Shown: piece after piece, positions 1,627 to 48,063 of the stretch
How positions within the stretch are numbered: position 1 is the first letter of the stretch
Layout: every line of letters begins with the position of its first letter
Assembly (NCBI GenBank): GCA_964342475.1
Contig: CAYFGE010000004.1
Location: 14,796-78,795, forward strand
DNA from: an uncultured Planctomycetales bacterium
GTDB taxonomy: Bacteria > Planctomycetota > UBA1135
Direction of reading: 5' to 3'
DNA: 64,000 bases
Program-made: the position numbers and the translations under genes
Notes under the pieces: model-generated
Seen by the model: only the letters and a program-made list of their open reading frames with translations
What the model was told of the DNA's origin: nothing
The model's database searches: none

Positions 1627-2936
1627 TGTCCGCCGCCACCACCACCACCCGTTCCGCCGAGCTCTACGAGCGCGCCTGCCGCGTCATGCCCGGCGGGGTC
1701 AGCTCCCCCGTGCGCGCCTACCGCTCCGTCGGCGGCGTCCCGCCCTTCCTGGCCGACGCGCGCGGCTGCCGCGTGACCGACGAGGACGGCAACGAGTACC
1801 TCGACTTCGTCAACTCGTGGGGCCCGCTGATCCTGGGCCACTCGAACCCCGCCGTGGTCGACGCGGTGCAGCGCGCCGCCGCGCGCGGCACGAGCTACGG
1901 CGCGCCCTGCCGCGCCGAGACCGAGCTGGCCGAGAAGGTCGTCGCGCTGTCGCCGGTCGCCGACCGCGTGCGCTTCGTCAACAGCGGCACCGAGGCGACG
2001 ATGAGCGCGCTGCGCCTGGCCCGCGCGGTCACCGGGCGCGACGGCTTCGTCAAGTTCGACGGCTGCTACCACGGCCACGGCGACGCCTTCCTGGTCCAGG
2101 CGGGCTCCGGCCTGGCCACCTTCGGCGAGTCCTCCAGCGCCGGCGTGCCGGCCGACTGGTCGAAGTGGACCGGCGTGCTGCCGCTCGACGACGAGGCCGC
2201 GCTCGAGGCCTGGTTCGCCGCACACGGTGCCGAGACCGCCGCGGTCTTCGTCGAGGGCATCCCGGCCAACTGCGGCTTCCTGCCGCAGCGCCGCGCCTGG
2301 ATGGACCGCCTGCGCGAGCTGACCCGCGAGCACGGCACCGTGCTCGTGGTGGACGAGGTGATCACCGGCTTCCGCCTCGGCCCCGGCGGCTACTGCGGCC
2401 GCGAGGGCTACGACGCCGACCTGGTCACCTACGGCAAGGTGATCGGCGGCGGCCTGCCGGTCGGCGCCTACGGCGGCCGCGCCGAGCTGATGGACCGCAT
2501 CAGCCCCGAGGGCGGCGTCTACCAGGCCGGTACGCTGAGCGGCAACCCGCTGTGCATGGCCGCCGGCCTCGCCGCGCTCGGCGTGCTCGAGCAGGAGGAC
2601 GGCTGGGGCCGCCTCGAGCGGCTCGGCGCCGCCTGGGAGGAGCGCCTGCGCCCGCTGGTCGAGCGCGAGAACGCCGCCGGCGCGCCGGTCACCCTGACCC
2701 GCGACGCCTCGATCTTCTGGCTGTGCTTCGACGCCACCGAGGCGCCGCGCAGCTACGGCGCGATCCCGGCCTCCGGCGCCGAGCGCTACCGCCGCTTCTT
2801 CCACGCCCTGCTCGAGCGCGGCGTGATGATCGCCCCCTCGGCCTACGAGGTGGGCTTCCTCAGCCTCGCCATGACCGAGGCCGACCTCGACCTCGCCGCC
2901 GCGCGCTTCGCCGAAGCCCTGGAGCTGGCCCGATGA
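1626..2936 (+). CDS. hemL: glutamate-1-semialdehyde 2,1-aminomutase
   Basis: Corresponds to the last 436 codons of ORF 237..2936. Motifs: PGGVSSPVRA, NSGTEATMSALRLARA, DEVITGFR, and the PLP-lysine context TYGKVIGGG. ATG 1626 shares one base with the hemB TGA. Confidence 0.95.
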   Translation: MSAATTTTRSAELYERACRVMPGGVSSPVRAYRSVGGVPPFLADARGCRVTDEDGNEYLDFVNSWGPLILGHSNPAVVDAVQRAAARGTSYGAPCRAETELAEKVVALSPVADRVRFVNSGTEATMSALRLARAVTGRDGFVKFDGCYHGHGDAFLVQAGSGLATFGESSSAGVPADWSKWTGVLPLDDEAALEAWFAAHGAETAAVFVEGIPANCGFLPQRRAWMDRLRELTREHGTVLVVDEVITGFRLGPGGYCGREGYDADLVTYGKVIGGGLPVGAYGGRAELMDRISPEGGVYQAGTLSGNPLCMAAGLAALGVLEQEDGWGRLERLGAAWEERLRPLVERENAAGAPVTLTRDASIFWLCFDATEAPRSYGAIPASGAERYRRFFHALLERGVMIAPSAYEVGFLSLAMTEADLDLAAARFAEALELAR

Positions 2937-3970
2937 CCGCCACCGAACCCACCAAGCCGATCCTCCGCGCCCTGCGCGGCCTGCCCAACGAGGTCACCCC
3001 GATGTGGCTCATGCGGCAGGCCGGGCGCGCGCTGCCCGAGTACCGCGCCCTCAAGGCCGAGCACGGCTTCGTCAAGATGGCCTCGACGCCCGAACTGGCG
3101 GCCGAGGTCACGCTGCAGCCGATCCGCCGCTTCGGCTTCGACGGCGCGATCCTCTTCGCCGACATCCTGACGCCGCTGATGCCGCTGGACTTCGGCATCG
3201 ACTTCGCGCCGGGGCCGGTGTTCGAGAAGCCGCTAGGCGGCGCCGAGGACCTCCACCGCGTCTGCGCGCCGCCGCCCGGCTCGCTCGACCACGTGGCCGA
3301 GGCGATCCGCCTGATCAAGCCGCAGCTGCCCGCGGGGACGGCGATGCTCGGCTTCGCCGGAGCGCCCTTCACCATGGCCAGCTACCTGCTCGACGGCGGC
3401 GGCTCGCGCGAGCACGACCGGCTGCGCGCCGCGGTCTACGGCGACCCGGCCTTCTTCGCCCAGCTGCTCGAGCGCCTGGCCGACCTGACCGTCGTCTACC
3501 TGCAGGAGCAGATCGACGCCGGCGCCGAGGCGGTCCAGCTGTTCGACACCTGGGCCGGCCTGCTGCCGCTCGACCTCTACCGCCGCACGGCGCTGCCGGC
3601 GGTGCAGCGCGTCATGCGCGGCCTCGAGGGGACGGTGCCGCGCCTCTACCTGATCAAGGACGGCGCCCACCTGCTTCCCGGCATGGCCGAGAGCGGGGCC
3701 GACGCCCTGTCGCTCGACTGGCGTCAGCCGCTCGACGAGGCGCGCGCCTTCCTCGGCGACGCCTTCCCGGTGCAGGGCAACCTGGACCCGGGCTGCCTGC
3801 TCGGCACGCCCGACTCGGTGCGCGCGGCCGCCCGCCGCGTGCTCGAGCAGAACGCCGGCCGCCCCGGCCACGTCTTCAACCTCGGGCACGGCCTGCTGCC
3901 GCAGACCCCGCTCGAGAACCTGCAAGCCCTGTGCGACGAGGTCCGCCACCATGACCCTGCAGCCGTCTGA
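2933..3970 (+). CDS. hemE: uroporphyrinogen decarboxylase
   Basis: ATG 2933 overlaps the hemL stop (ATGA). Motifs: PMWLMRQAGRALPEYR, LFADILTP, QLFDTWAG, VFNLGHG. Confidence 0.95.
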   Translation: MTATEPTKPILRALRGLPNEVTPMWLMRQAGRALPEYRALKAEHGFVKMASTPELAAEVTLQPIRRFGFDGAILFADILTPLMPLDFGIDFAPGPVFEKPLGGAEDLHRVCAPPPGSLDHVAEAIRLIKPQLPAGTAMLGFAGAPFTMASYLLDGGGSREHDRLRAAVYGDPAFFAQLLERLADLTVVYLQEQIDAGAEAVQLFDTWAGLLPLDLYRRTALPAVQRVMRGLEGTVPRLYLIKDGAHLLPGMAESGADALSLDWRQPLDEARAFLGDAFPVQGNLDPGCLLGTPDSVRAAARRVLEQNAGRPGHVFNLGHGLLPQTPLENLQALCDEVRHHDPAAV

Positions 3971-5339
3971 CGCCCCGGCCGAGCTGGTCGCCAAGTACGA
4001 CCGCTCCGGTCCCCGCTACACCAGCTACCCGACCGCCCCGGTCTGGACCGACGCCTTCGACGCCGAGGCCTGGGTCGGCGCGCTGCGCCAGGCCGACGAG
4101 CGGGCGGACGAGCCGATCGCGATCTACGTCCACCTGCCGTTCTGCCAGAAGCGCTGCCTGTTCTGCGCCTGCAACGTGGTGATCACCAAGCGCGAGGACG
4201 TGGTCGAGGAGTACCTCGCGCGGCTGTTCCGCGAGATCGACCGCACCGCCGCGGAGATGCCGCAGCGGCGCCGGCTCAGCGGCCTGCACTGGGGCGGGGG
4301 CACCCCGACCCACCTGAGCTGCGAGCAGCTCGAGCGCCTGTATCGCAAGATCGAGGAGCACTGGACCGTGCTGCCCGACGCCGAGCTGTCCATCGAGGTG
4401 CACCCGCCGGTGACCACCCGCGAGCAGCTCGAGACCCTGCGCCGGCTGGGCTTCAACCGCATCAGCTTCGGCGTGCAGGACATGGACGGAGAGGTGCAGG
4501 AGCTGATCGGCCGCGACCAGACCGTGCAGCAGACCGAGGACGTGCTGACCACCTGCCGCGAGCTCGGCTTCAGCAGCGTCAACTTCGACCTGGTCTACGG
4601 CCTGCCCGGCCAGACCGCCGAGACCTGGGACTACACCCTGGACCAGGTCCTGCGCCTGCAGCCCGACCGCCTGGCGATCTACAGCTACGCCCACGTGCCG
4701 TGGCTGCACAGCCACCAGAAGCGGATGCCGATGGACCGCCTGCCCGAGCCCGAGCTGAAGCTCGAGCTGCTGCGGACCGCCGCGCGCCGCCTGTGCGGCG
4801 AGGGCGACTACGCCGAGATCGGCTTCGACCACTTCGCGCTGAAGAAGGACGAGCTGGCCCGCGCGGTGGACGAGAAACGGCTCTACCGCAACTTCATGGG
4901 CTACACCGTGCGGCCGGCCTCGGACTACGTCGGCTTCGGGGTGACCGCCATCTCCGAGGTCGGCAACTGCTTCGCCCAGACCCACGGCAAGCTCAACCGC
5001 TGGAATGAGGCGCTCGACGACGAGGGCTTCGCCATCGCCCGCGGCCACCAGCTCAGCATGGACGACCGCGTCCGCAAGCTGATCATCGAGCGGATCATGT
5101 GCAACCAGTGGCTCGACCTGCGCGAGGTCGAGGCCCTGTCCGGGCAGCCCTTCCGCGAGCAGTTCGCCGCCCAGTGGGAGGCGCTGGCCGAGATGGAGGA
5201 GGACGGCCTGGTCGAGCGCGGCGAGGACCACCTCGGCATGACCGAGCTGGGCCGGCTGTTCCTGCGCAACGTCTGCATGCTGTTCGACGCCTACCTGCCG
5301 GAGCAGGAGAAGGAGGGCCGCTTCAGCCGGACGGTCTAG
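3951..5339 (+). CDS. hemN: oxygen-independent coproporphyrinogen III oxidase (radical SAM)
   Basis: ORF 3951..5339. Contains GPRYTSYPTA and the radical-SAM cysteine triad HLPFCQKRCLFCAC. The start overlaps hemE by 20 nt. Confidence 0.93.
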   Translation: MTLQPSDAPAELVAKYDRSGPRYTSYPTAPVWTDAFDAEAWVGALRQADERADEPIAIYVHLPFCQKRCLFCACNVVITKREDVVEEYLARLFREIDRTAAEMPQRRRLSGLHWGGGTPTHLSCEQLERLYRKIEEHWTVLPDAELSIEVHPPVTTREQLETLRRLGFNRISFGVQDMDGEVQELIGRDQTVQQTEDVLTTCRELGFSSVNFDLVYGLPGQTAETWDYTLDQVLRLQPDRLAIYSYAHVPWLHSHQKRMPMDRLPEPELKLELLRTAARRLCGEGDYAEIGFDHFALKKDELARAVDEKRLYRNFMGYTVRPASDYVGFGVTAISEVGNCFAQTHGKLNRWNEALDDEGFAIARGHQLSMDDRVRKLIIERIMCNQWLDLREVEALSGQPFREQFAAQWEALAEMEEDGLVERGEDHLGMTELGRLFLRNVCMLFDAYLPEQEKEGRFSRTV

Positions 5340-36406: not shown

Positions 36407-39058
36407 TCAGGGCCGGACCGCGCGCAGCTCGCGCATCAGGGCGAGGGTGCGCGGGGCGCCGCGGTAGAGCATGCCGAATGCCTTGGCGTAGCCGGTCTTC
36501 TGCGGCAGGTGCGCCCAGGCGTCCTGGATCACGGCCCACAGGTCGGCGTCGTGCTCGAGGCTCTCGGCGTAGGCCAGGCCGTAGAGGACCAGGCCCGACA
36601 TGCCGGCGTAGGCCTCGGTGGCGCCGTGCGCGCGGTAGCGGAAGGCGTGCTCGTTCCAGTCGTACTGCTGGGTGGCCCACTGGCGCGCGAGGTCGCGCAG
36701 GTGGAGCTGGACGTCCCCGCGGCCGGTGCGCTGGTGGTAGCGCGCGAGGCCCTCGAGTTGCAGGCCGGCGTGGATCGAGGAGCGGATGCGGTCGACCGGC
36801 GTGGCCAGCAGCACGTCGGCGCACTGGTCCATCGCGGCGAGCATGTCGGCGCGCAGGGCCTGCTCGGCGGGCATGCCGCAGCTCAGGTCGGCCAGGGTGT
36901 CGAGGTTGACCAGCGGCCAGCCCAGGTTGCGGGTGTAGAGGGGCTCGTCGGTGCGGTCGCGCTGCTCCTCGATGGTGCGCAGGGCGAGCGGGACCACCTC
37001 GTCGACCTGGTGGCGGCCGAAGGCCAGGGCGCGCTCGCGCAGCCGCGCCTCGCCGGTCAGCAGGTGGGCCAGGGCCACGCTCTGGACCACGGAGTGGCCG
37101 GCCTGGTGGCGCTGGTCCGGGATCGGCGCGGTGTCGACGTGGAAGGAAGGCATGGCCTGCCACGAGCCGCCGTAGCGGGCGAAGAAGCCGGCGAAGTCGG
37201 CGTCGGCGTCGTCGAAGCCGCGGCTGCTGGCTTCGGGCAGGCTGGCGATCTGCCGCGCGTAGGCCTCGAGCGTGTCGGCGCTCTGGCCGCTCGCGGCGAG
37301 GTCCAGGCCGATGCGCTCGACCAGGTGGAAGCCGATCATGTCGAACATCCGGCCGAGCAGGTCCTGCTCGGGCAGGCCGCGGCGCCGCTCGGCGTCCAGC
37401 CAGCCCTCGAGGGTGGCGGAGGCGCCGCGGCCGTACTGCCCGGCGACCCAGTCCAGCGCGTTGGCCAGGCTGCCGTCGTGGTTCGGCGAGGCCGCCCACT
37501 CGGCGCGGAAGTCTGCGCCGAGGATGCCGCCGATCCAGGCGTCCACGTGGTGCTTGGTGGAGCGGTGCTGGAAGACGCCGCCTTGGGGCGTGCTGTCCAC
37601 GTCGGCGAGGTGCCAGACCTGGTCCAGCGCCGGGTCGAGGTAGTCGACGTCGCCGGTGCGCAGGAACTGCTGCAGGAGCACCACCGCGGGGTCGTACTCG
37701 AGCTGCAGGGCGCCGGAGTAGGCCAGGCTGTGCTCGCCGTCGAAGAAGTCGCCGAAGTGCTGGATGCCGTGGTGCAAGCTGCTCGAGCGGCTGCGGCGGC
37801 CGAGCACCTCGTCGGTGGACTGGGCCAGCATCTCCTCGAGGTCGGCGTGGTCGCCCGCCTCGGCCAGGCCGAGCTGCCCGAAGGCGCCGGCGGCGACGTA
37901 CCACTGCGGCGTGCAGTGGGGGCGCGCCGGCTGCTCGAGGCGCGCGGCGAGGGCGTGGAGGGCGGCGGCGCGCGGCGGCGCGGCGTCGATCCACAGCTTG
38001 ACCGTGCGGCCGAAGCCGTCCTCGACCACCTCGGCGGCGTCCACCGTGCCGGGGCAGAAGTCGAGCACGAGGGAGTCGCCCTGCCGCGCGGCGCGGGTGG
38101 GCATCAGCTCGGCGAAGTGGCGCAGGCCCACGGTCAGGTTGGCGGTGGCGATCACGCCGGGGAAGTCCCCGGCCTGCTCGCGCCCCTGGAAATCGAAGAC
38201 GCCCACCGCGGTCTGCCAGATCGCGGCGTCGCCGCGGCGGCGCGCGATGCGGCCGTCGGGCAGCGGGGCGTGCGTGCGCAGGCCGGGGCGTTCGACCGGC
38301 AGCTCGAGGCGCCACGAGCGCAGGGAGTGGACGCCGCGGGTGACGTCCAGGCTCTGCTGCAGGCGGATCCGGCCGGAGCCGCGGTGCAGGGTCACGCGGG
38401 TGGTGAGGGTGGCGCAGGGGACCCCGTCCCCGGCCGCCAGGGTCTCCTCCCGGCGCAGGGTGACGGCGAGCTCCGACTGCTGCTCGACCTCCATCCAGGC
38501 TGCTCCGACCGGCTGCAGCACGCCGTCGGCGGTCTCGACCACGGCGCGCGCGGGCGCCGACAGCAGGCCGGCGTCGCCGCTGATCAGCTCGAAGAGCTCG
38601 TGGGCGCCGGTGGCCTCGGTCAGGGCGAGGAAGCCGGTGTCCACGCGGGCGGCGGTCATCGGCGCGTGGGCGACGTCGAGGATCCCCTCGGCCGTCTCCC
38701 CGCGGTCGCGGGCGACCAGGGCGGCCTCGAAGCGCTCTCCGGCGGCCAGGGCCGGCGCGGTGAACCCGACGCGCAACCAGCGCACCGAGCCGTCCTCCCA
38801 CCGCGACAGGACCTGGCCGTCGGCGAGCAGCGTCCCGGTCGGCGTGTCGAGCGCCAGCTCCGGGACGGAGGCCAGCATCCCCTCCGGGAAGGGGACGCCG
38901 AGGACCACCGGCCAGGCCGGCTGGTCCAGGCCCGTGCGCTCCTCCAGGACGACCGGCACCTCGAAGGGCGGCGGTTCCTGGGCGGCGGCGGGGGAGGCGG
39001 CCGCCGCGAGGGCGAGGGCCGCGAGGGAGGGGAGCAGAGGGGTGGTGGGCATCGACAT
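36407..39058 (-). CDS. ~884-aa secreted protein, paralogue 2 of the tandem pair
   Basis: ATG 39058 (or 39052). Signal peptide MSMPTTPLLPSLAALALAAAASPAAAQ. Shares blocks with paralogue 1: DGSVRWL, QHFGDFFD, LLQQFLRTGDVDYL, PSFHVD, GWPLVNL, YAKAFGMLYRGA. Confidence 0.8.
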   Translation of the reverse strand: MSMPTTPLLPSLAALALAAAASPAAAQEPPPFEVPVVLEERTGLDQPAWPVVLGVPFPEGMLASVPELALDTPTGTLLADGQVLSRWEDGSVRWLRVGFTAPALAAGERFEAALVARDRGETAEGILDVAHAPMTAARVDTGFLALTEATGAHELFELISGDAGLLSAPARAVVETADGVLQPVGAAWMEVEQQSELAVTLRREETLAAGDGVPCATLTTRVTLHRGSGRIRLQQSLDVTRGVHSLRSWRLELPVERPGLRTHAPLPDGRIARRRGDAAIWQTAVGVFDFQGREQAGDFPGVIATANLTVGLRHFAELMPTRAARQGDSLVLDFCPGTVDAAEVVEDGFGRTVKLWIDAAPPRAAALHALAARLEQPARPHCTPQWYVAAGAFGQLGLAEAGDHADLEEMLAQSTDEVLGRRSRSSSLHHGIQHFGDFFDGEHSLAYSGALQLEYDPAVVLLQQFLRTGDVDYLDPALDQVWHLADVDSTPQGGVFQHRSTKHHVDAWIGGILGADFRAEWAASPNHDGSLANALDWVAGQYGRGASATLEGWLDAERRRGLPEQDLLGRMFDMIGFHLVERIGLDLAASGQSADTLEAYARQIASLPEASSRGFDDADADFAGFFARYGGSWQAMPSFHVDTAPIPDQRHQAGHSVVQSVALAHLLTGEARLRERALAFGRHQVDEVVPLALRTIEEQRDRTDEPLYTRNLGWPLVNLDTLADLSCGMPAEQALRADMLAAMDQCADVLLATPVDRIRSSIHAGLQLEGLARYHQRTGRGDVQLHLRDLARQWATQQYDWNEHAFRYRAHGATEAYAGMSGLVLYGLAYAESLEHDADLWAVIQDAWAHLPQKTGYAKAFGMLYRGAPRTLALMRELRAVRP

Positions 39059-39138
39059 GAGGGGTGACGAGCCCTGTGCGGCTGCTCCGGCGCGCACTTG
39101 AGGAGTTTTTCGGCTGCGCGGAGTCGCCGGGCGTCCGG

Positions 39139-39196: not shown

Positions 39197-41155
39197 CTAG
39201 GGCTGGATGGTCGTCGGACCGTAGTAGCCCAGGCGTTGGTCGCCGCCGAACCAGGAGACGGTGGACAGCAGGACCGTGCGGTTGGCCAGCGGGGCGCCGT
39301 TGATCGAGGCCGGCACCAGCCAGGTGTAGGAGGCGGAGCCGAAGGCGTCCGGGTTGCTGAAGCCGATCGCGTGGTAGGGAGCGCTCAGGCCGGTGTTCAC
39401 GCTGCCGAGGTACATCGCGTTGCCCTGGCTGAGGCCCATGAAGTAGTAGACCACGGCGGAGGTGCTGCGGTGACCGTAGGTGGTCTGCAGGGTGCTGGAC
39501 CAGTTGACGCGCAGCGCCGAGGAGAGCTCGAGCTCGATCGGGCGGTCCTGGATCACGCCGCCGTCGATGGAGCTGACGCGCTCGAAGGGACCGCGCGCCT
39601 CGACGGCCTGGAAGTAGACCCGGTCGCCGGCGGCGAGGGTGATCGGCAGGTCGAAGTCGGAGCTGTGCGAGCCGCCGGTGAGGCCGTTGACGAGCTCGAA
39701 GTAGTCGTTGCCGCCGATGCCGCCGATCAGGCCGCTGATGCCGATGGTGTAGCCCTCGGCGGTGGTCGTGCTGCCCAGCGAGGTGCCGACGTAGAGGTAG
39801 ACGTCCGCGTTCTCCTTGACGTTGGTCACGTCGAAGGTGACGAGGCTGTCGAGCACCGGGGTGTTGGTCAGGTTCAGCTCGAGCGGGCCGATGTTGCTGT
39901 CCGGCGGGGTCCAGACCTGGTAGTGGCCCTGGCGGCGGCCGAGGCCGGCGTCGGCGTCGGGAGCGCCGAAGGCCAGGTCGCTGATCGTGGTCTGGTTGAC
40001 GTCACCGGTCTCGGTGATCGTCGCGCCCATGCGGCTGCCGGCGGTGCCGTCCACCGAGAGCAGCACCTGCGGCGCGGCGCCCTCGAGGAAGTCGATGACG
40101 TAGCCGCGGCCGGCGCCGTTCTCGCGCGGCGCGCCGACGGCGATCTCGACCAGGTTGTCGTAGTCGCGGTCCGGAAGCAGCTGGATCTCGTAGCCGAACT
40201 GGCTGGCGACCGAGGCGCCGTTGAGCGTCTTGACCAGCGCGCCGGAGGCGCCGTTCCAGATGTAGGCCGAGCCGTTGGTCGTGCCGGGCGCGCCGGCGGC
40301 GATGTAGCCGCCGCCCGGGGCGAGGATGGCGCTGACCGAGAAGCCGGCCTTGGCGCCGGCCACCGACGGGTAGAGGTGGCGCAGCGTGGCGAGGTCGCTG
40401 AGCGCGGTGACCGAGCCGGACTCGGTGCCGCCGTCGTTGGCGAAGGGCGCGCCGACGACGATCTCGTCGCCCGCCGACCCGGCCAGGTTGCCGAGGTTCT
40501 CGGAGGAGAAGCCGAACCACTCGCGCGAGCCGGGGGTGCCGGCGATGGGCGAGCCGGCCAGCTCGACCAGGGCGCCGGAGTTCCACTCGTAGACGTGCAG
40601 CGCGCCGTCCGCGCCGTTCTCACCGACGGCGCCCACGGCCAGCTCGACCGCGCCGTCCCCGTCCACGTCGGTCGCGGCCACCGAGGCCCCGAAGAGGATG
40701 CCGTTGCCCTGCCCGTCGATGAAGTCGAGCACGCTGCCGTCGGAGCCGCTGATCACGTAGGCCCGGCCGGCGAAGAAGCCGTTCAGGTCCGAGTAGAAGG
40801 GGGCCGAGGCGGCGAAGTCCGGGATGCCGTCGCCGTTCAGGTCGCCCAGGGAGGCGACGGAGGCGCCGAAGAGGCTGCCGGCCTTGTCGCCCGGGACGGT
40901 GCGGATCAGGCTGCCGTCGTGGCCGTTCAGGATGTGGACCGCGCCCGAGTTGAGGCCGTTGGCGTCCTCGGCGAGGGCGCCCACGAGGAGGTCGGGGAGG
41001 CCGTCACCGTTCACATCGCCCAGCTGGGCCATGGAGTAACCGAAGGAGGAGCCGCGCTCGGCGCCGTCCTGCTCGTAGAGAGACAGCCACTGGGCCTGGA
41101 GCGGCGACGTCAGGGCGACCGCAAGACCAGCAAGGGTAAGGAGGTACGTACGCAT
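39197..41155 (-). CDS. FG-GAP (integrin-alpha-type) repeat protein with two C-terminal beta modules
   Basis: ATG 41155 gives the signal peptide MRTYLLTLAGLAVALTSPLQAQ; GTG 41176 is the alternative start. Repeats: GDVNGDGLPDLLVGA, GDLNGDGIPDF, TDVDGDGAVELAVGA. Confidence 0.85.
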   Translation of the reverse strand: MRTYLLTLAGLAVALTSPLQAQWLSLYEQDGAERGSSFGYSMAQLGDVNGDGLPDLLVGALAEDANGLNSGAVHILNGHDGSLIRTVPGDKAGSLFGASVASLGDLNGDGIPDFAASAPFYSDLNGFFAGRAYVISGSDGSVLDFIDGQGNGILFGASVAATDVDGDGAVELAVGAVGENGADGALHVYEWNSGALVELAGSPIAGTPGSREWFGFSSENLGNLAGSAGDEIVVGAPFANDGGTESGSVTALSDLATLRHLYPSVAGAKAGFSVSAILAPGGGYIAAGAPGTTNGSAYIWNGASGALVKTLNGASVASQFGYEIQLLPDRDYDNLVEIAVGAPRENGAGRGYVIDFLEGAAPQVLLSVDGTAGSRMGATITETGDVNQTTISDLAFGAPDADAGLGRRQGHYQVWTPPDSNIGPLELNLTNTPVLDSLVTFDVTNVKENADVYLYVGTSLGSTTTAEGYTIGISGLIGGIGGNDYFELVNGLTGGSHSSDFDLPITLAAGDRVYFQAVEARGPFERVSSIDGGVIQDRPIELELSSALRVNWSSTLQTTYGHRSTSAVVYYFMGLSQGNAMYLGSVNTGLSAPYHAIGFSNPDAFGSASYTWLVPASINGAPLANRTVLLSTVSWFGGDQRLGYYGPTTIQP

Positions 41156-41200
41156 TTCTGGGTGGTGCTTCGGCACGGAGGGGACGGGAGTGCCACCAGA

Positions 41201-41248: not shown

Positions 41249-42847
41249 ATGAGCGGCTCCATCCGACGCGTTCTCGCCCTCCTCGCCCTGTCCTGGGGCC
41301 TTTCCGCGGCATCCTGCGGCGGCGCCGAGGAGCCTCCCGCCCCGGCTCCGCAGCCCGCTCCGGCCGAGGCCGCCGACCCCTCCGCGGAGGGGGCCGGCGC
41401 TCCCCAGGATCCGGGCCCGGTGCTCGGCCCGCGCGAGGCCGACATGTCCGAGCTGCGCGTCACCTGCTTGAGGGACGAGGACGGCCAGCCGGTGGCCGGG
41501 CTGCGGGTCCGGCTGCTGTGGAAGTCGGGCGAGCAGGACACCGACGTCGGCCGCGCCTACCAGATGACGGGCCTCGACGGCGTGGCCCGCTTCCAGGTGC
41601 TCGGTGGGACGATCATCCAGTCCGTGGCGGCCGAGCCGAGCGCGCTCACCGCGCCCGAGGCCCTGGTGATCAAGAAGCCGATCCTCCCGGCCACCGAGGT
41701 CGAGCTCGAGCTGCGCGTGAAGCCCGCCGGCACCCTGGCCGGAGTGGTGTTGAACGCCGCCGGCGAGCCGGTGGTCGGCGCCGAGGTGGTGGTCTGGTTC
41801 GACGAGCGCTGGAACGTCGAGGGGCCGGAGGAGAAGGTCTTCGACGTGAAGAGCGCCAGTTACGAGCTCGGCTCCTTCACGGTCGGCGGCCTGCCGCAGG
41901 GCGCCTTCACCGTCGAGGCGCGCAAGGAGGGGATGATCGCCACCCGCCGCGCCACGGGGCGCATCCGCACCGGCCAGGTCCTCGACGGCTTCGAGCTGGT
42001 GCTCGAGGAGGCCCAGCCCTACTACGGCCGCGTCGTCGACGAGGACGGCGAGCCGATCGCCGGCGCGGGGCTGGTCGTCGGCATGGTCGGCCGCCACGCG
42101 AGGTTCGAGGAGAGCTTCACCGACCAGGCCATCTACGTGCCGGCCGCCCAGGTCCACCTGGTGAGCGACGCCGACGGCGTCTTCGAGGTCGCGGCGCGCC
42201 CGCCCAGCCAGATGTGGGTGGCCGAGGCCAAGCGCCAGGGCTACCAGGACACGCGCAAGCGCATCCTGCCCGGCGAGGGCGCCGGCGACGTGGTGATGCC
42301 CTCGGGCTTCACCCTGTTCGGCCAGGTGCTCGACCCGGACCGCCGGCCGGTCGGCCGCGCCCTGCTGCGCCTGCGCGGCGAGCAGCAGAAGCAGTTCCGC
42401 ACCGGCGAGGGTGGCGGCTACCGCGCCGAGGGGCTGCGCGAGGACCTCGAGGCCGCCCTGCTGGTCTACAAGCCGGGCTTCGCGCCGACCCTGGTCTGGC
42501 CGGTCGAGGTCGGTCCGGACGCCGAGGCGCTGCCGGTGCTGCTGCGTCCCGGGATGATGGTCAGCGGCCGCGTGATCGGCCCGGACGGCGAGGGCCTCCC
42601 CGGCGCGCGCGTCCAGATCGTCGAGGAGCTGCCGAGCTCCGAGTTCGCCAGCCTGCCCTTCCCCGGCGGCCCGCTGCGCGCCGAGTTCGGCATCGACCAG
42701 GCCCTGACGGCCAGCGACGGCCGCTTCGTGCTGACCGACCTCCCGCCCGGTGAGCTGCGCCTGCGCGTGTTCGGGCCGGACGGCGCCGAGCGGCCCGAGG
42801 TGCTCACAGAGCCCGGCACCGACGAGCTCGAGATCCGCATCGACTGA
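41249..42847 (+). CDS. lipoprotein with carboxypeptidase-regulatory-like (CarboxypepD_reg) repeats
   Basis: Lipobox LSWGLSAASC|GG. Repeated G.V.d..G.P..GA.V units (LAGVVLNAAGEPVVGAEV, YGRVVDEDGEPIAGAGL, VSGRVIGPDGEGLPGARV). Confidence 0.75.
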   Translation: MSGSIRRVLALLALSWGLSAASCGGAEEPPAPAPQPAPAEAADPSAEGAGAPQDPGPVLGPREADMSELRVTCLRDEDGQPVAGLRVRLLWKSGEQDTDVGRAYQMTGLDGVARFQVLGGTIIQSVAAEPSALTAPEALVIKKPILPATEVELELRVKPAGTLAGVVLNAAGEPVVGAEVVVWFDERWNVEGPEEKVFDVKSASYELGSFTVGGLPQGAFTVEARKEGMIATRRATGRIRTGQVLDGFELVLEEAQPYYGRVVDEDGEPIAGAGLVVGMVGRHARFEESFTDQAIYVPAAQVHLVSDADGVFEVAARPPSQMWVAEAKRQGYQDTRKRILPGEGAGDVVMPSGFTLFGQVLDPDRRPVGRALLRLRGEQQKQFRTGEGGGYRAEGLREDLEAALLVYKPGFAPTLVWPVEVGPDAEALPVLLRPGMMVSGRVIGPDGEGLPGARVQIVEELPSSEFASLPFPGGPLRAEFGIDQALTASDGRFVLTDLPPGELRLRVFGPDGAERPEVLTEPGTDELEIRID

Positions 42848-42861
42848 GCGGCGGCCTCGGC

Positions 42862-43566
42862 TCAGGCGTCCGGCGCGTCGAACAGCCCCTCCGGGGGGGC
42901 GGGCTTGACGCACTGCGGTCCCTGGGTCGAGGCGCGGTTCACCGCGCGGCTGACGCGCCAGCGCTGCAGCAGCGCGGCCGGCGCCGGTCGCAGGAGCGCT
43001 TCGAGGGCGCTCCGTCCTGCCCCCGGGTCCATCCACTGCTCGCGGGCCTCGGCGTCCAACAGCACCGGCATGCGGTGGTGGACCGGCGCCATGAGGGCGT
43101 TGGCCTCGGTGGTGAGCAGCGCCAGGCCGTCGCGCACCGCGCCGTCCTCGCCCGTGCGGCGCTCCCAGATCGCGGCGGCGACGAGCAGGCCGGCGCCGTC
43201 GGCGGGGGAGAAGTACCACGGCACCCGCTCGCGGCCGTCGCGCTTCCACTCGTAGAAGCCGCTCATCGGCACCAGGCAGCGGCGCGCGCGGAAGGCGGCG
43301 CGGAAGGAGGGCTTGCTCGCCACGGTCTCGGCGCGGGCGTTGATCAGCGGGGCGGGCGAGGCCTCGCGTGACCAGGCCGGGACCAGGCCCCAGGCGAGGC
43401 GGCGCAGCGCGCGCGGAGCGTCCTCCTCGGCGGCGGCGGCGAGGACCTCCTGGCTGGGCGCGATGTTCCAGCGCGGCTCGAGCTCGCCGGCGTCCTCCGG
43501 CAGCTCGGCGGCCAGGGCGCGCGCGACGTCGGCGCGCGGCGCCGCCAGGGTGAAGCGTCCGCACAT
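42862..43566 (-). CDS. SOS response-associated peptidase (SRAP/YedK family)
   Basis: The N-terminal MCGRF has the catalytic Cys2. Also contains RWNIAPSQ, LINARAET, FYEW and MPVLL. Confidence 0.9.
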   Translation of the reverse strand: MCGRFTLAAPRADVARALAAELPEDAGELEPRWNIAPSQEVLAAAAEEDAPRALRRLAWGLVPAWSREASPAPLINARAETVASKPSFRAAFRARRCLVPMSGFYEWKRDGRERVPWYFSPADGAGLLVAAAIWERRTGEDGAVRDGLALLTTEANALMAPVHHRMPVLLDAEAREQWMDPGAGRSALEALLRPAPAALLQRWRVSRAVNRASTQGPQCVKPAPPEGLFDAPDA

Positions 43567-43572
43567 GCCGCC

Positions 43573-43578
43573 AGCCTA
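43573..43578 (-). promoter_or_regulatory. -10 box TAGGCT, 6 nt upstream of the SRAP ATG (leaderless)
   Basis: On the minus strand the sequence is CGCTAGGCTggcggcATG. The same TAGGCT-N6-ATG arrangement occurs at xthA. Confidence 0.45.
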
Positions 43579-43591
43579 GCGGGCGCGCGGC

Positions 43592-44014
43592 TCAGCCGTG
43601 GGTCCGCGGGCGCAGCTGGTGGCCGGCGTAGGCCAGCAGCCACAGCGCCGAGCTGGCCAGGTGGACCACGAGCCAGACCTGCCGCCAGCTCTCGTCCACC
43701 GCGGTCTGCAGGAAGTAACCGGACAGGACCATCGGCCACAGCGTGGCCAGCAGGCCGATGCCGCTGCCGCGGCGGGCGCTGTCGGGGTTCTGCATCCGGC
43801 GCCAGCCGTGGTGCTTCCACAGCATGCCCGCGCTGAAGGCGAGCAGGGGGGCGGTCCACAGGTGCAAGTGGTGCAGGTGGGGCTGCAGCGGGTGGTTGAC
43901 CAGGGCGAACTCGTCCTGCGGGGTGCAGAAGTAGAGCGTCCAGGCGTAGGCCAGGCCCGCCCCGCCGACCAGGAGGTTGGCGAGGTGGTGGAACCAGGCC
44001 TCGAAGCGGCTCAT
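43592..44014 (-). CDS. 140-aa His-rich four-TM membrane protein (cytochrome-b-like/DUF4405-like candidate)
   Basis: ATG 44014 overlaps the FMN_bind stop (ATGA). Four hydrophobic helices carry FHHLANL, HLHHLHLW, WKHHGW, VVHLAS and AGHQL. Confidence 0.7.
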   Translation of the reverse strand: MSRFEAWFHHLANLLVGGAGLAYAWTLYFCTPQDEFALVNHPLQPHLHHLHLWTAPLLAFSAGMLWKHHGWRRMQNPDSARRGSGIGLLATLWPMVLSGYFLQTAVDESWRQVWLVVHLASSALWLLAYAGHQLRPRTHG

Positions 44015-44577
44015 CGGCCGCCGCCCTCCTCGTCGTCCTCCGGCGCCGGAGCGCCGAGGACCAGGTCCACCGCGAGGCTGCGGCGCACGGCGCCGAGCGT
44101 GGCGCGCGCGGTCAGCGTGGCGCCGGCGGCGTTGTGGATCTTCTTCTTGATCTGCAGCTCGTCGTCGAGCTCGCGGCCGAGGAACTGGGCGTACCAGTTC
44201 CCCTTCGGCAGGTAGTCGAGCGGCTCGGAGAAGGCGAGGACCTCGAGGCGCTTCACCTTGCCGTCGGGGCCGACCACGACCATGAGCACCTCGGGGAGGG
44301 TGCGCACCTTGTGGCGGTCGAAGTAGGCGTGGCCGAGGAGCCGGCCCTTCGCGTCGCGGGCCGTGTAACGGCGCACGACGGCCGAGTCGAGGTCGCTGCC
44401 GGCCAGCTCCTCGGCCTCCGCGCGCTGCTCCTCGGTGAGGTAGACGGTCTCCTTCTCGACCTCGGCCTTCGGGAAGGCCAGCTCGAGGGCCTCCTCCTGG
44501 GTCAGGAAGACCTTGCCGCTGCCCCCCGCTTGCGCGGGGAGCAGGGCGGTCGCGGTGAGGAACAGCGCGAGGAGCAT
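44011..44577 (-). CDS. periplasmic FMN-binding (FMN_bind) domain protein
   Basis: Signal peptide MLLALFLTATALLPAQA. NosR-type N-terminus FLTQEEALELAFPKAE. Flavinylation-type motif AAGATLTA. Confidence 0.82.
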   Translation of the reverse strand: MLLALFLTATALLPAQAGGSGKVFLTQEEALELAFPKAEVEKETVYLTEEQRAEAEELAGSDLDSAVVRRYTARDAKGRLLGHAYFDRHKVRTLPEVLMVVVGPDGKVKRLEVLAFSEPLDYLPKGNWYAQFLGRELDDELQIKKKIHNAAGATLTARATLGAVRRSLAVDLVLGAPAPEDDEEGGGR

Positions 44578-44581
44578 CGGA

Positions 44582-45754
44582 TCAGAAGATGTAGCCGGCC
44601 GAGAACTCGAGCACCTTGGCGTCGCTGGCGGAACCGGGGAGGTCCTGGTCCTGCAGGTCGGCCTTGAACACGAGCTGGGGCAGGGGCTGGTAGGCCACGC
44701 CCACGGTGATCACGGTCGCCGCGGTGTCGGCGGCCGCGTCGGCGGCGAGGTCGTACTCGCTGTAGCGCAGGAAGGGGGTCAGGGCCCTCCCGGTCCCGGC
44801 GAAGACGTCGTAGCCGGCCTCGAGGTACCAGCCCTCCACCTCGTCGCCGAGGTTGCCGAGGGTGGTCGCGTCCTCCATCTCGCCGGAGGCCCACAGACCG
44901 CGCAGGCGCAGGGCCTCCCAGTCGTACTGGCCGTGGAACTCGAGGATGGTGGTGTCGAAGTCCGGGCCGCTGCTCGGCGCGGACTGGTCGGCCTTGCCGA
45001 GGTAGGCGGAGCCGCCGACGAGCAGGCCGTCGACGCCGCGCCAGTCGAGGCGGCCGACCCAGGCCAGGTTCTCGGCAGCCGCCTTGCTGCCCTTCTGGCG
45101 CGCGCTGCGGAAGCCCTGGTCGTCCAGGCTGCTGCCGAGCTTCGAGGCGTCGAAGCCGGTCAGGACGTAGGTGCGGTAGCTGAAGTCGCCGAAGTCGCCG
45201 AAGGCGCCGACCGCGTTCTCGTGCCAGGTGCTCGGCAGGACGTAGCGCTCGACCACCGGGCGGTTGGCCGACCAGAAGGTCGTCGGCTCGTGCATCTCGT
45301 TGATCCAGCCCATCGGCACGAGGACGTGGCCGACGCGCAGGTTGAAGCCCTCGGACACGAGGTGGTCGAGGTAGGCCATCTCGAGCGCCACCTCGTCGAC
45401 GTGCTCGATCTCGATCTCGGAGTTGAAGACCCAGCGGTCGTCGAACTTGTAGCCGATGTAGACGATGGCGCGGTAGAAGTCCCACTTCGCCGCGGTCGAG
45501 GTGTCGGAGCTCTTCTGGTAGAGCATCTCGCCGTAGCCGCCGATCGAGATGCCGTCGGTGGAGGCGTAGACCTTGGAGGCCGCCGGGCTGAGGCCGTAGA
45601 GGCTGCCCACCGCGACCGGGTCCTGGCCGACACGCAGGGTCTCGAGCTCCTCGGAGAGCAGCTCGATGCGGCGCGCGAGTTCGGCGTTGCTCGGGGCGTC
45701 CTGCGCGGCCAGCGGGGCGGCGAGCGCGAGGGCGAGGATGGGGGAGAGGCGCAT
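44582..45754 (-). CDS. outer-membrane porin-like beta-barrel with an N-terminal coiled coil
   Basis: ATG 45754 lies 2 nt after the apbE stop. Signal peptide MRLSPILALALAAPLAAQ, coiled coil AELARRIELLSEELETLR, amphipathic strands, and terminal SAGYIF. Confidence 0.75.
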   Translation of the reverse strand: MRLSPILALALAAPLAAQDAPSNAELARRIELLSEELETLRVGQDPVAVGSLYGLSPAASKVYASTDGISIGGYGEMLYQKSSDTSTAAKWDFYRAIVYIGYKFDDRWVFNSEIEIEHVDEVALEMAYLDHLVSEGFNLRVGHVLVPMGWINEMHEPTTFWSANRPVVERYVLPSTWHENAVGAFGDFGDFSYRTYVLTGFDASKLGSSLDDQGFRSARQKGSKAAAENLAWVGRLDWRGVDGLLVGGSAYLGKADQSAPSSGPDFDTTILEFHGQYDWEALRLRGLWASGEMEDATTLGNLGDEVEGWYLEAGYDVFAGTGRALTPFLRYSEYDLAADAAADTAATVITVGVAYQPLPQLVFKADLQDQDLPGSASDAKVLEFSAGYIF

Positions 45755-45756
45755 GG

Positions 45757-46764
45757 TCAGCGGGTGTTCGGGGTGGGAAGGATGCGGTCGGCGAGGCCGG
45801 AGCTGGCGCGCACGCGCAGCTCCCCGTCGGCGCCGACCTGGAGGAGGAGGACCTCGATGCCGTCGTGCTCCTCCGCCCACTCGAGGGCGGCGTCGGGGCC
45901 GAGGACGGCGAGTCCGGTGGAGAGGCAGTCGGCGGCGGTGGCGTCCGGTGCCCAGACGCCGAGGCTGCCGAAGTCGGGCGCGGGGCGCCCGGTGCGCGGG
46001 TCGATCAGGTGGCCGAGGCGTTCGCCGTCGACCTCGATGCCGCGCTCGGAGTTGCCCGAGGTGGCGAAGGAGCCGCCGTCGAGCCGGAGTTCGAGGACGG
46101 CGCGGCCGCGCTCGACCGGATGGGCGACCGGCAGGGCCGCGGCCGGCGCGCCGAGCCAGGCGAGCTGGCCGCCGAGGTCGATGCGGGCGCGGGTGGCGCC
46201 CGCGTCGCGAGCGGCCTCCAGGGCGAGGTCGAGGGCGCGCCCCTTGCCGAAACCGCCTTCCTCGACGCCGGCCCCCGGGTGGCGGCGCACGAAGCCCTCG
46301 GAGGTGAGCGCCAGGGCTCCGGGCGCGGCGGCGGCGAGCGCCTCGGCGAGGAGCTCCGGCGAGGGCCGCCGGCCGCCCTCGCGCAGGCCCCAGGCCTGGA
46401 CCAGCGGCATCATGCCGGGGTGGAAGGCGCCCCCCGTGGCCTCCCTCCAGGACCACGCCGCGGCCAGGTCGGCGCGCAGGGCCGGGCCGAGCGGCTGGGG
46501 GACGCCGACCGGCGCGCGCGAGAGCCGGGAGAGCTCGCTGTCCGCGCGCCAGGTGCTGAGCCGCGCCTCGGTGGCCTCGATCGCCCGCACGGCCGCCTCC
46601 GAGGCGGCCAGGGCGGTGGCGCGGTCGGTCGCCGCCACCTCGAGCTCGAGCCAGGTGCCCATCGCGGCGAGCCGCCGCTCGACCACCGCCTCGGCCTGGA
46701 GATCCTGCGCCGCGGCCGCCGGAACGGCGGTCAGCAGGCTCAGGAGGAGGGCGGCGGCAGGCAT
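45757..46764 (-). CDS. apbE: FAD:protein FMN transferase (ApbE family)
   Basis: ATG 46764. Signal peptide MPAAALLLSLLTAVPAAAAQ. Motifs: GGFGKGRALD, TSGNSERG, GHLIDPRTGRP. Confidence 0.88.
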   Translation of the reverse strand: MPAAALLLSLLTAVPAAAAQDLQAEAVVERRLAAMGTWLELEVAATDRATALAASEAAVRAIEATEARLSTWRADSELSRLSRAPVGVPQPLGPALRADLAAAWSWREATGGAFHPGMMPLVQAWGLREGGRRPSPELLAEALAAAAPGALALTSEGFVRRHPGAGVEEGGFGKGRALDLALEAARDAGATRARIDLGGQLAWLGAPAAALPVAHPVERGRAVLELRLDGGSFATSGNSERGIEVDGERLGHLIDPRTGRPAPDFGSLGVWAPDATAADCLSTGLAVLGPDAALEWAEEHDGIEVLLLQVGADGELRVRASSGLADRILPTPNTR

Positions 46765-46795
46765 CTTGTTGAGACTGGTTCTCAAAAGCGTGGGG

Positions 46796-46802
46796 TAGGA
46801 TA
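46796..46802. promoter_or_regulatory. TAGGATA element in the divergent apbE/deoA spacer (TAGGAT on the plus strand, TATCCT on the minus strand)
   Basis: The context is GGGGTAGGATAGGCC. It lies 8 nt upstream of GTG 46810 on the plus strand and about 32 nt upstream of the apbE ATG on the minus strand. Confidence 0.35.
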
Positions 46803-46863
46803 GGCCCCGGTGGCGGCCGCGCAAGGGCTTTTTCCTCCCCCGGCGCCGCGGCATGATGCGGCG

Positions 46864-48063
46864 GTGATCGACCGCTGGCTGGAGGAGCGCCGCGAGGGGC
46901 GCGAGCAGGACGAGGCGGCTATCCGCGGCTTCGTGGAGGGGGTGGTGGACGGCAGCGTCACCCGCGCCCAGGCCGCCGCCTGGCTGGCCTTCGTCTACCT
47001 GAAGGGGATGAGCCCGGCCGAGACCGTCGCCCTCACCCGCGCGATGACCGAGTCGGGCGACGCGCTGCGCTGGGAGGGCCTCGACGGCCCCTTCGTCGAC
47101 AAGCACTCCACCGGAGGGGTGGGGGACAAGGTCTCGCTGGTGCTGGCGCCGCTCTGGGCGGCGCTCGGCAAGCGGGTGCCGATGCTGTCCGGGCGCGGCC
47201 TCGGCATCACCGGGGGCACCCTCGACAAGCTCGAGGCCATCCCCGGCTACCGCACCGACCTGGCCGAGCCGGAGCTCCGCGCGGCGCTGGCGGAGGTGGG
47301 CTGCTTCATCAACGGGCAGACCGAGCGGGTCGCGCCGGCGGACCGGATCCTCTACGCCCTGCGCGACGAGACGCAGACCGTGCCCTCGATCCCGCTGATC
47401 ACCGCCTCGATCCTGTCGAAGAAGCTGGTCGAGGGGCTCGACGAGCTCGTCCTCGACGTGAAGTGCGGAAGCGGGGCCTTCATGGCCACCGAGGAGGCCG
47501 CGCGCGAGCTGGCCGACTCGCTGGCCGGGATCGGCAACCGCGCCGGGGTGCGCACCACCGCCCACCTCACCGACATGTCGCAACCCCTCGGCTGCGCGGT
47601 CGGCAACGCGCTCGAGGTGCGCGAGGCCGTGGCCTGCCTCGAGGGGGGCGGACCGGCCGACCTGCGCGAGCTGGTCCTGCGGCTGTGCGGCGATCCCGCG
47701 GGCGCCGCCGCCCTCGACGACGGCCGCGCGCTGGCGCGCTGGCAGGCGATGGTGCGGGCCCACGGCGGCGATCCCGAGGCGCCGCTGCACGGCGCCGGCT
47801 GCGCGACCGTGGAAATCCCCGCGCCGCACGCCGGTGAGCTGCGGCGGTGTGACGCCGGTCTGCTCGGCCGCGCCGCCTTCCGGCTCGGCGCCGGCCGCAC
47901 CCGCGCCGGCGAGCCGGTCCACTTCGGCGTCGGCCTCGAGGTGCTCGCCAAGCGCGGCACGACGGTCGCGGCGGGGGAGCCCCTCGTCCGCCTGTGGCAT
48001 GCCGACGGCCGCGGCCTCGAGGAGGCCCGCGCCGCCGCCGCCGCTGCCTTCGAGGTGGCCTGA
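46864..48063 (+). CDS. deoA: thymidine/pyrimidine-nucleoside phosphorylase
   Basis: Motifs: DKHSTGGVGDK, SGRGLGITGGTLDKLE, and the C-terminal PYNP domain. GTG 46864 fits the family N-terminus; the longer alternative is GTG 46810. Confidence 0.9.
   Translation: MIDRWLEERREGREQDEAAIRGFVEGVVDGSVTRAQAAAWLAFVYLKGMSPAETVALTRAMTESGDALRWEGLDGPFVDKHSTGGVGDKVSLVLAPLWAALGKRVPMLSGRGLGITGGTLDKLEAIPGYRTDLAEPELRAALAEVGCFINGQTERVAPADRILYALRDETQTVPSIPLITASILSKKLVEGLDELVLDVKCGSGAFMATEEAARELADSLAGIGNRAGVRTTAHLTDMSQPLGCAVGNALEVREAVACLEGGGPADLRELVLRLCGDPAGAAALDDGRALARWQAMVRAHGGDPEAPLHGAGCATVEIPAPHAGELRRCDAGLLGRAAFRLGAGRTRAGEPVHFGVGLEVLAKRGTTVAAGEPLVRLWHADGRGLEEARAAAAAAFEVA

Follow-up and report, generated by a model that had tools for sequence, protein, structure and literature searches.

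The 64-kb window examined here, a stretch of DNA from an uncultured Planctomycetales bacterium with a G+C content of ~73%, carries a module of four minus-strand genes encoding an ApbE-family protein, a predicted outer-membrane porin, a secreted FMN_bind protein and a small histidine-rich protein with four transmembrane (TM) helices, henceforth the 4-TM protein. The porin, FMN_bind and 4-TM genes recur side by side across phyla in an arrangement that is far beyond chance, and together with ApbE the trio is a selected functional unit, in which the porin belongs to the core and is no mere passenger. We lean slightly towards reading the module as a Fur-controlled reductase that would pass electrons from quinol through haem b and a covalently bound flavin mononucleotide (FMN) to Fe(III), and that would be served by a dedicated outer-membrane channel.

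Gene order and conservation of the module

The four genes follow one another on the minus strand in the order ApbE (46764-45757; 335 residues, TGA at 45759-45757), porin (45754-44582; 390 residues, ATG at 45754, stop at 44584-44582), FMN_bind (44577-44011; 188 residues, ATG at 44577) and 4-TM (44014-43592; 140 residues). A 2-nt gap separates ApbE from the porin and a 4-nt gap the porin from FMN_bind; the FMN_bind and 4-TM genes share an ATGA overlap at 44014-44011. An earlier note on this DNA, made from the sequence of the window, had described four tightly packed minus-strand genes, and the coordinates, both gaps and the overlap bear it out. The motifs that it quoted were all found (GGFGKG and GHLIDPRTGRP in ApbE, the C-terminal AGYIF of the porin, AAGATLTA in FMN_bind); the porin gene is likewise in place, but its product has 390 residues and not the 391 that had been stated.

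Genomic contexts were gathered through homologues of the 4-TM protein (33-53% identity), of the FMN_bind protein and of the porin. The FMN_bind scan, with one genome per species, returned about 520 loci, the best 80 of which were kept, and every six-frame open reading frame (ORF) of the loci was searched with hidden Markov models of the four proteins. Porin, FMN_bind and 4-TM genes lay adjacent on one strand in 76 of these 80 species genomes, and ApbE was also present, upstream of the porin, in 61 of the 80. The trio stood together in a further six metagenome loci reached through the 4-TM or FMN_bind proteins, and in all three loci reached through the porin. The carriers belong to the Planctomycetota, the Acidobacteriota (Thermoanaerobaculia, Holophagales, Sulfomarinibacteraceae) and the Myxococcota. 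Most loci without the complete set end at a contig edge. Ten loci, from Candidatus Multivorans and Holophagales, keep the trio with ApbE elsewhere and have Lon, PPK2 and amine oxidase genes as neighbours; locus L013 is without a porin, and L074 has none between ApbE and FMN_bind, its contig ending soon after. It is because the flanking genes vary between lineages that the trio plus ApbE can be taken as a unit under selection. The co-occurrence that the earlier note had put forward as a check on itself is thus present, at 76 of 80 for the trio and 61 of 80 for all four genes, and the cross-phylum synteny upholds its view of the genes as one functional unit.

Predicted redox proteins and porin

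The first gene product matches the ApbE family over profile positions 1-265 of 266 (Pfam PF02424, 4.6e-51, 174.3 bits against a cut-off of 25.6), with a further match to the NCBIfam ApbE model (1.5e-25). These profile matches are unambiguous and assign the 335-residue protein to ApbE, the flavin adenine dinucleotide (FAD):protein FMN transferase. Its N-terminus, MPAAALLLSLLTAVPAAAAQ, resembles a signal peptide as judged by sequence. Most members of its 90% cluster are recorded with 355 residues; a form of that length in the window (45757-46824, minus) would begin 60 nt further upstream and so run over both the operator described below and the beginning of the gene next to it. With the signal-peptide-like segment directly behind it, 46764 looks like the correct start. 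In many Thermoanaerobaculia loci (L005, 7143-8240(-); also L020, L033, L039, L040, L046, L048, L051, L053, L058 and L073), the 4-TM gene is closely followed by a divergent second ApbE paralogue in convergent orientation, which often precedes a TetR-family regulator gene (cluster c21).

The FMN_bind protein has a signal peptide and belongs to a family of 716 homologue clusters, and many homologues at 53-66% identity carry the Pfam domain PF04205. The family profile matches RnfG in the solved Rnf complex (9eri_G, E 7.7e-4, residues 52-172) with the flavinylation motif in register, pointing to a periplasmic RnfG/NqrC-like FMN_bind protein. The predicted site of FMN attachment is Thr154 (codon 44116..44118, minus strand) in the motif A-G-A-T154-L-T, a prediction that draws on conservation and on the RnfG alignment. 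Gly152 and Ala153 are invariant, and position 154 is Thr in 28 of 29 aligned relatives and Ser in the other. The family consensus reads V-[T/S/A]-G-A-T-L-T-A-R-A-T, with Thr the commonest residue at the first motif position (TGAT), and the Thr154 motif aligns to the TGST site of RnfG. The family also has invariant residues that are without counterpart in RnfG or NqrC, namely E29-A-L-x-L-x-F35, D87-x-H89-x-V-R92, E118-P-x-x-Y-x-P124 and W128; these are possible metal- or partner-binding sites.

The 4-TM protein matches no Pfam or NCBIfam family. An exhaustive profile search returned 1340 representatives of its family at E<=1e-3, annotated in public records as 'hypothetical'. Its AlphaFold2 (AF2) model (predicted local distance difference test, pLDDT, 93) places helices at residues 3-29, 44-75, 82-104 and 108-134. 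Conservation, computed over 149 representatives, is 100% for H51 and H69, 97% for H118 and H132 and 96% for H41; beyond the histidines it is 100% for P56, 99% for G20 and G85, 97% for Q103 and 94% for G99. H51 and H69 lie 18 residues, or five helical turns, apart on TM2, and H118 and H132 lie 14 apart on TM4; G20 is on TM1, and G85 and G99 are 14 apart on TM3. In cytochrome b, histidine pairs on helices B and D together with glycine pairs on A and C make up the bis-His di-haem four-helix signature. Four TM helices studded with histidines had been reported in the earlier note: the helices and 12 histidines are there, but conservation is limited to the four invariant or near-invariant residues plus H41, the other seven of the 12 being variable. 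The histidines of FHHLANL, most of those of HLHHLHLW and the first of WKHHGW, all of which had been singled out, are present but not conserved. The placement of the histidines, by which the heme-binding idea was to be judged, came out in its favour, with the alignment and the AF2 model agreeing on a pairwise arrangement of the four conserved residues on TM2 and TM4.

By Foldseek, the best TM-scores of the 4-TM model against the Protein Data Bank (PDB) were to cytochrome b6 (7qrm_A, 0.64), the cytochrome b of hydrogenase-1 (4gd3_A, 0.58) and mitochondrial cytochrome b (0.56). The DUF4405 family (PF14358), with six TM helices and four central histidines, is a proven haem b binder that sits in ApbE clusters (Huang 2024, PMC11334425). 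It gave no match in the 4-TM protein of the window and sub-threshold matches in 8 of 26 relatives (best E 5.6e-4), and one 4-TM fusion protein scored 17.2 bits against a cut-off of 26.7. The label 'DUF4405-type' suggested by the earlier note therefore does not fit a protein with four TM helices instead of six and with scores below the Pfam threshold; judging by its sequence, the 4-TM protein would work like DUF4405 without being a member of the family.

Natural fusions of 474-545 residues show a tight functional link of the 4-TM protein with ApbE. At least nine representatives (P0298, P0341, P0365, P0372, P0382, P0395, P0408, P0432 and P0439) join a 4-TM domain through one additional TM helix to a complete ApbE domain. 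Because ApbE acts outside the cytoplasm and the extra helix intervenes in the fusions, the C-terminus of the 4-TM protein must lie in the cytoplasm (N-in/C-in), which would place H51 and H118 on the periplasmic side of the membrane and H69 and H132 on the cytoplasmic side. Paired candidate axial histidines are accordingly available at two depths, the pairing by depth being drawn from the helix boundaries and the fusion-derived topology, and the conserved N-H41-P-L-Q-P loop would face the periplasm and hence the flavoprotein. The 4-TM protein is predicted to be a di-haem b-type cytochrome.

For the 390-residue protein, the Pfam family Porin_O_P (PF07396) scored 21.9 bits against a cut-off of 20.9, over the C-terminal residues 306-366 only, and no NCBIfam family matched; its homologues number more than 1762 clusters, some of which carry PF07396. 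A profile search against solved structures gave no match. The AF2 model, built on 35 homologues (pLDDT 85), has a signal peptide, an N-terminal helix (residues 23-39) and a barrel of 16 β-strands that starts at residue 68. Foldseek matched it to OmpT, OmpU, OmpK36 and OprP with E-values of 1e-13 to 1e-12, a probability of 1.00 and TM-scores of up to 0.62 (OprP). Because of the model and these matches, the protein is classed as a classical 16-strand porin, and the outer-membrane β-barrel that the earlier note had guessed at from the C-terminus finds support in the same two results.

Between strands 5 and 6 of the model, DSSP delimits a 32-residue non-strand segment with a short helix, an L3-like internal loop at residues 146-177 (PMGWINEMHEPTTFWSANRPVVERYVLPSTWH; 45224..45319, minus strand). 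Together with the preceding strand, this loop is the best-conserved stretch of the porin. Invariant residues are E113, E115, E117, H118, P147, G149, N152, H155, P157, R165, P166 and E169, followed by P174, T176, W177, E179 and H274. By analogy with general porins, residues 146-177 likely form the constriction of the pore. A cation-selective 'glutamate ladder' of E113, E115 and E117 was considered and not adopted, since invariant Arg residues are present too.

With this modelled architecture, the porin is best seen as a channel through which a small substrate diffuses, and not as a sheath around a redox protein. The architecture speaks against the 'envelope-spanning electron conduit' of the earlier note, the model being a 16-strand barrel with a constriction loop that resembles OmpT, OmpU, OmpK36 and OprP. 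A conduit across the outer membrane of the Mtr type, in which the flavoprotein would be inserted in the barrel and electrons would cross via bound cofactors, strikes us as extremely improbable. The operons mtrAB and pioAB likewise pair genes for a porin and a redox protein, and the N-terminal periplasmic helix of the porin, ~100 residues longer in Acidobacteriota homologues of 450-500 residues, could dock periplasmic partners; yet the 16 strands with an internal loop resemble OmpF/OprP-type diffusion porins, whereas MtrB-type sheaths have 26 strands. The globular FMN_bind domain, at ~160 residues, is moreover too large for the barrel, and the flavoprotein would offer a single redox centre for a span of >40 Å. 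The porin was also considered as a flavinylated outer-membrane protein of the DUF3570 type (Meheust 2021); it had no such Pfam hit and no [S/T]GA[S/T] motif, and the assignment was rejected.

Many Acidobacteriota homologues of the porin have 440-510 residues, against 390 here, and a much longer N-terminal coiled-coil-like segment with about 100 extra residues (L005 4491-5987 and L006 4494-5975 are among them); some sources annotate these proteins as 'FtsB' or 'MtrG'. The long segment could reach across the periplasm.

Operator, neighbouring genes and proposed role

Immediately upstream of the module, within the 45 bp that separate ApbE from the divergently oriented gene for thymidine phosphorylase, lies a candidate operator of the Fur-box type (TTGAGAACCAGTCTCAA on the gene strand; 46769..46785, 5-21 nt upstream of the ApbE ATG). 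It is a 17-bp perfect palindrome in the region 46766-46788, AT-rich within a genome of 73% G+C. Among 86 loci, 31 have the 19-bp Fur-box-type palindrome, with the consensus ATTGAGAcTnAgTCTCAAT shared across phyla, within 400 bp upstream of ApbE, with only 55 hits in 1.02 Mb overall; the consensus includes conserved positions that the search pattern left unconstrained. The operator also precedes FTR1 genes. Scored with a position weight matrix from related loci, the site in the window reaches 29.9 bits and the next best in the window 2.1. Taken by itself, the occurrence in the window is not significant (one hit against 0.74 expected), and the sole ground on which the operator is credible is its conservation across loci. 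The core TGAGAATGATTCTCA, taken from locus L019, is identical to an Enterococcus faecalis Fur site, that of an iron ATP-binding cassette (ABC) operon derepressed 12-18 fold in a fur mutant (PMC6056675), and the consensus ATTGAGAcTnAgTCTCAAT closely resembles the Xanthomonas Fur box AATGAgAATcATTctCATT (PMC1790865). The core of the window site TTGAGAACCAGTCTCAA is identical or near-identical to published Fur sites.

The flanking ORFs of the 86 loci were clustered and their representatives annotated. Upstream of the module and on the same strand, 27 loci carry an FTR1 permease fused to an FtrD-like domain, and 20 carry FtsX/MacB-type ABC permeases. Locus L005 also encodes an ATPase with an Fe_dep_repr_C domain; in L059 the same operator is followed by an FTR1 gene and a CCP_MauG-like gene, both upstream of ApbE. 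In Bifidobacterium breve, the FTR1 protein BfeU, the FtsX permeases SifBC, the ATPase SifD and the FMN-binding SifE (bfeUO-sifABCDE), together with apbE, are needed under iron limitation (PMC5449479), and FMN_bind genes occur in P19/FTR1 iron clusters (Meheust 2021, PMC8238504). Neighbours and operator, read together from sequence, point to iron, a link that the earlier note had missed. Because the window is without an iron transporter, this link draws its support from other genomes and from the operator.

The same neighbours can be read in the opposite direction: periplasmic oxidation of Fe(II) would feed FTR1, as Fet3 does for Ftr1 in yeast and FtrB in FtrABCD, with electrons draining here through the flavin and the cytochrome b to the quinone pool. 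FTR1-FtrD genes head many of the module operons, and characterised FTR1-type permeases couple to Fe(II) oxidation. Against this, covalent FMN in RnfG/NqrC-type domains is low-potential and a poor oxidant of Fe(II), and the module often occurs without FTR1. The survey of flavinylation systems reads the FMN_bind proteins of P19/FTR1 clusters as reductive (Meheust 2021), and we judge the oxidative direction to be very unlikely.

A substrate other than iron seems to us an unlikely account as well; candidates would be Cu(II), Mn(III/IV), chromate, peroxide or superoxide, or oxidised protein residues, under the control of PerR, Zur or Mur. Such control is conceivable in that Fur-family boxes differ by only one or two positions per half-site, and four-helix cytochrome b561-type proteins can serve oxidant detoxification. 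CCP_MauG-like di-haem peroxidase genes adjoin the module in L004 and L059. The box core, however, matches published Fur sites exactly, both recurrent partners (FTR1-FtrD and the ABC system like Sif of B. breve) are tied to iron, and none of the 40 commonest flanking clusters represents copper, manganese or Msr genes.

The analysis documents the gene order with its conservation, the family assignments, the conserved residues, the modelled folds, the shared operator and the iron transporters next door; for the module as a whole, we infer haem binding, flavinylation, a quinol donor, an Fe(III) acceptor, porin selectivity and Fur as the regulator. Iron limitation would relieve repression by a Fur-family protein at the palindrome over the ApbE promoter and so turn the operon on. 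Exported ApbE would modify the secreted FMN_bind protein with FMN, bound covalently at Thr154. The 4-TM protein, as a minimal four-helix bis-His di-haem cytochrome b with a periplasmic-side haem at H51/H118 and a cytoplasmic-side haem at H69/H132, would draw electrons from the quinol pool and carry them across the membrane to the flavoprotein. The latter would reduce a small oxidised compound that enters the periplasm via the dedicated 16-strand porin with the conserved internal loop as its selectivity filter; the most probable substrate is Fe(III), as such or chelated. Fe(II) would then be passed to an inner-membrane importer, which in many Acidobacteriota operons would be the FTR1-FtrD permease and the MacB/FtsX-type ABC system; in the genome of the window, the iron importer would be encoded elsewhere.

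Several observations weigh against this proposal. On the iron side, the operator lies upstream of ApbE in only 31 of 86 loci, its regulator could be of the Zur, PerR or Mur type instead of Fur, and FTR1 or ABC neighbours occur in only about one third of loci. None of the recurrent neighbours, FTR1 and FtsX included, turned up when the window was searched for them, and the genes around the module there are housekeeping genes. On the protein side, the FMN_bind protein scores 19.6 bits against PF04205, under the cut-off of 22, and has AGAT in place of the canonical flavinylation motif [S/T]-G-A-[S/T] (Meheust 2021, PMC8238504); several relatives likewise have Ala at the first position, and the Asp that is usual six residues before the target Thr is replaced in the family by Arg, His or Lys. 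For the 4-TM protein, Foldseek against the PDB returned no significant E-value, and its profile gave only noise against solved structures (rhomboid, E about 0.3-1). The conserved residues of the porin mix acidic, basic and His side chains, so selectivity is not readable from them. Finally, all carriers found are uncultured metagenome-assembled genomes.

The module adjoins no iron importer in the window and in many Planctomycetota loci, which would also suit extracellular electron transfer or respiration. The flavoprotein would then reduce a diffusible mediator such as a free flavin, a quinone or a humic analogue, which would leave and re-enter by the porin and reduce insoluble extracellular acceptors. 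ApbE/FMN_bind systems do drive extracellular electron transfer in Listeria (Meheust 2021, PMC8238504), and a dedicated porin suits two-way traffic of a small mediator. The Fur-type box and the FTR1 and ABC importers in the same operons, however, favour assimilation over respiration, the loci examined hold no NADH dehydrogenase or quinone-biosynthesis partner of the Listeria-locus type, and nothing in a set of one flavin and two haems with a low-copy operon layout hints at respiration with high flux. We rate such a shuttle as unlikely and retain Fe(III) reduction for assimilation as the preferred reading.

An extension of the Fe(III) reductase proposal, doubtful though worth stating, is that porin, flavoprotein and mini cytochrome b are physically coupled into a TonB-independent route of reductive iron import across both membranes of diderm bacteria. 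The periplasmic N-terminal coiled coil of the porin, short here and about 100 residues longer in Acidobacteriota, would tether the channel to the flavoprotein and cytochrome pair, and Fe(III) would be reduced on leaving the pore and handed directly to the inner-membrane importer. If true, metals would cross the outer membrane by a class of uptake system not known before, and hundreds of uncultured species from soil and water would have it.

In the window, the module is followed by a SRAP (SOS-response associated peptidase) gene (42862-43566, minus), which begins 25 nt past the 4-TM stop, and is divergent from a thymidine phosphorylase gene (46810-48063, plus) across the 45-bp intergenic gap. 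Both genes recur in L003 and L004, thymidine phosphorylase alone recurs in L089, and neither is found in other lineages. Kept only in these closest Planctomycetota loci, they were rejected as members of the module, and their adjacency is probably lineage synteny outside the system. A scan of positions 42700-47000 for sigma-70 promoters and terminators found none on the gene strand; because no terminator was detected, SRAP may be co-transcribed with the module. Further neighbours in the window are genes for an RsmJ-like methyltransferase, NadA, a DeoC-family aldolase, and FG-GAP and CarboxypepD_reg proteins. Three large secreted proteins are encoded in a row: one of 896 residues (36407-39097, minus) without a Pfam family at E<=1e-4, one of 659 residues with FG-GAP repeats (39197-41176, minus) and a third of the CarboxypepD_reg type (41249-42847, plus). 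In other genomes, CCP_MauG-like di-haem cytochrome c peroxidase genes adjoin the module, in L059 between the operator and ApbE (~2700-4423, plus) and in L004 at 253-1842 (minus); their products may be alternative periplasmic redox partners or have an iron-related function.

Relation to known systems

The TM cytochromes that surveys have linked to flavinylation are MsrQ-like, PepSY-like/FoxB and DUF4405 proteins (Meheust 2021, PMC8238504; Huang 2024, PMC11334425). The present module resembles the MsrQ, PepSY and DUF4405 systems in setting ApbE beside a secreted FMN_bind protein and a small membrane protein of the haem-b type in which four histidines are conserved, and in its proposed iron link. 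The membrane-to-periplasm electron relay put forward in the earlier note accords with these surveys, in which ApbE, a flavinylatable FMN_bind protein and a cytochrome-b-like protein are likewise combined. Unlike MsrQ and DUF4405, which have six TM helices, the membrane protein of the module has four, is without PepSY domains and constitutes its own family. It would be the fourth, previously unnamed, family of flavinylation-linked TM cytochromes, and its small size, 140 residues, would make it convenient for studying how electrons cross a membrane in a minimal system. The phyletic range differs as well: catalogues of flavinylation systems so far draw for the most part on cultured members of the Firmicutes, Actinobacteria and Proteobacteria, the surveyed carriers, whereas the module is carried by Planctomycetota, Acidobacteriota and Myxococcota.

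The surveyed flavinylation systems also differ in having no counterpart to the dedicated porin, here a core member in 76 of 80 loci. A porin in such relays is unmentioned in Meheust 2021 and Huang 2024, and a literature search gave no relevant paper; the surmise of the earlier note that a porin lies outside the described architectures is therefore in line with both surveys. This would be the first outer-membrane porin that is an obligate genetic partner of a flavin relay, and it suggests a way in which iron may reach a periplasmic reductase in diderms that do not obviously depend on TonB and siderophores.

Among iron systems, the closest likeness is to bfeUO-sifABCDE and apbE of B. breve: in about 27 loci, ApbE and FMN_bind come after genes for FTR1, two or three FtsX/MacB permeases and an ABC ATPase, a set that corresponds to BfeU, SifBCD and SifE. 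P19/FTR1 clusters are mostly Gram-positive and without a porin or an identified membrane electron entry, whereas the module has both the 4-TM protein and the porin; the 4-TM protein would supply the missing membrane electron-entry point for FTR1/P19-type systems with an FMN-binding protein, and the porin would provide a way across the outer membrane. P19 itself (PF10634) gave no Pfam match in the proteins examined, the flanks not having been screened for it. The Fur-type box could help to predict iron regulons in Planctomycetota, Thermoanaerobaculia and Holophagales.

With OprP/OprO and general trimeric porins (PDB 2o4v, 4rjx, 6ehb, 1osm), the modelled porin shares 16 strands, an internal loop and a C-terminal aromatic residue, and its Foldseek E-values to this group range from 1e-13 to 1e-10. 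Unlike OprP/OprO, it has its own invariant Glu, His and Arg residues and an N-terminal periplasmic helix of variable length, and it is linked obligately to the redox pair and not to phosphate genes, of which there are none nearby. Porin and periplasmic redox-protein genes stand side by side in the operons of MtrCAB, PioAB and Pcc as well; those systems, however, combine barrels of 20-26 strands with a multihaem wire, and the module a 16-strand barrel with a globular single-FMN domain.

The 4-TM protein is akin to cytochrome b/b6, HyaC/FdnI-type cytochromes and E. coli cytochrome b561 in its predicted four-helix bundle, histidines ~14 residues apart on one helix, glycines on alternate helices and presumed coupling to quinol/quinone. 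It differs from the respiratory cytochromes b in being much smaller and in confining its conserved histidines to TM2 and TM4 with spacings of 18 and 14 residues; its partner is a flavoprotein, whereas that of the respiratory four-helix cytochromes b is a dehydrogenase. Taken together, ApbE is already known to associate with a flavinylated periplasmic protein and a small membrane protein that carries haem b, in many cases with a link to iron (Meheust 2021; Huang 2024), and what is new is the 4-TM family, its obligate porin partner, the Fur-type operator and the phyletic range.

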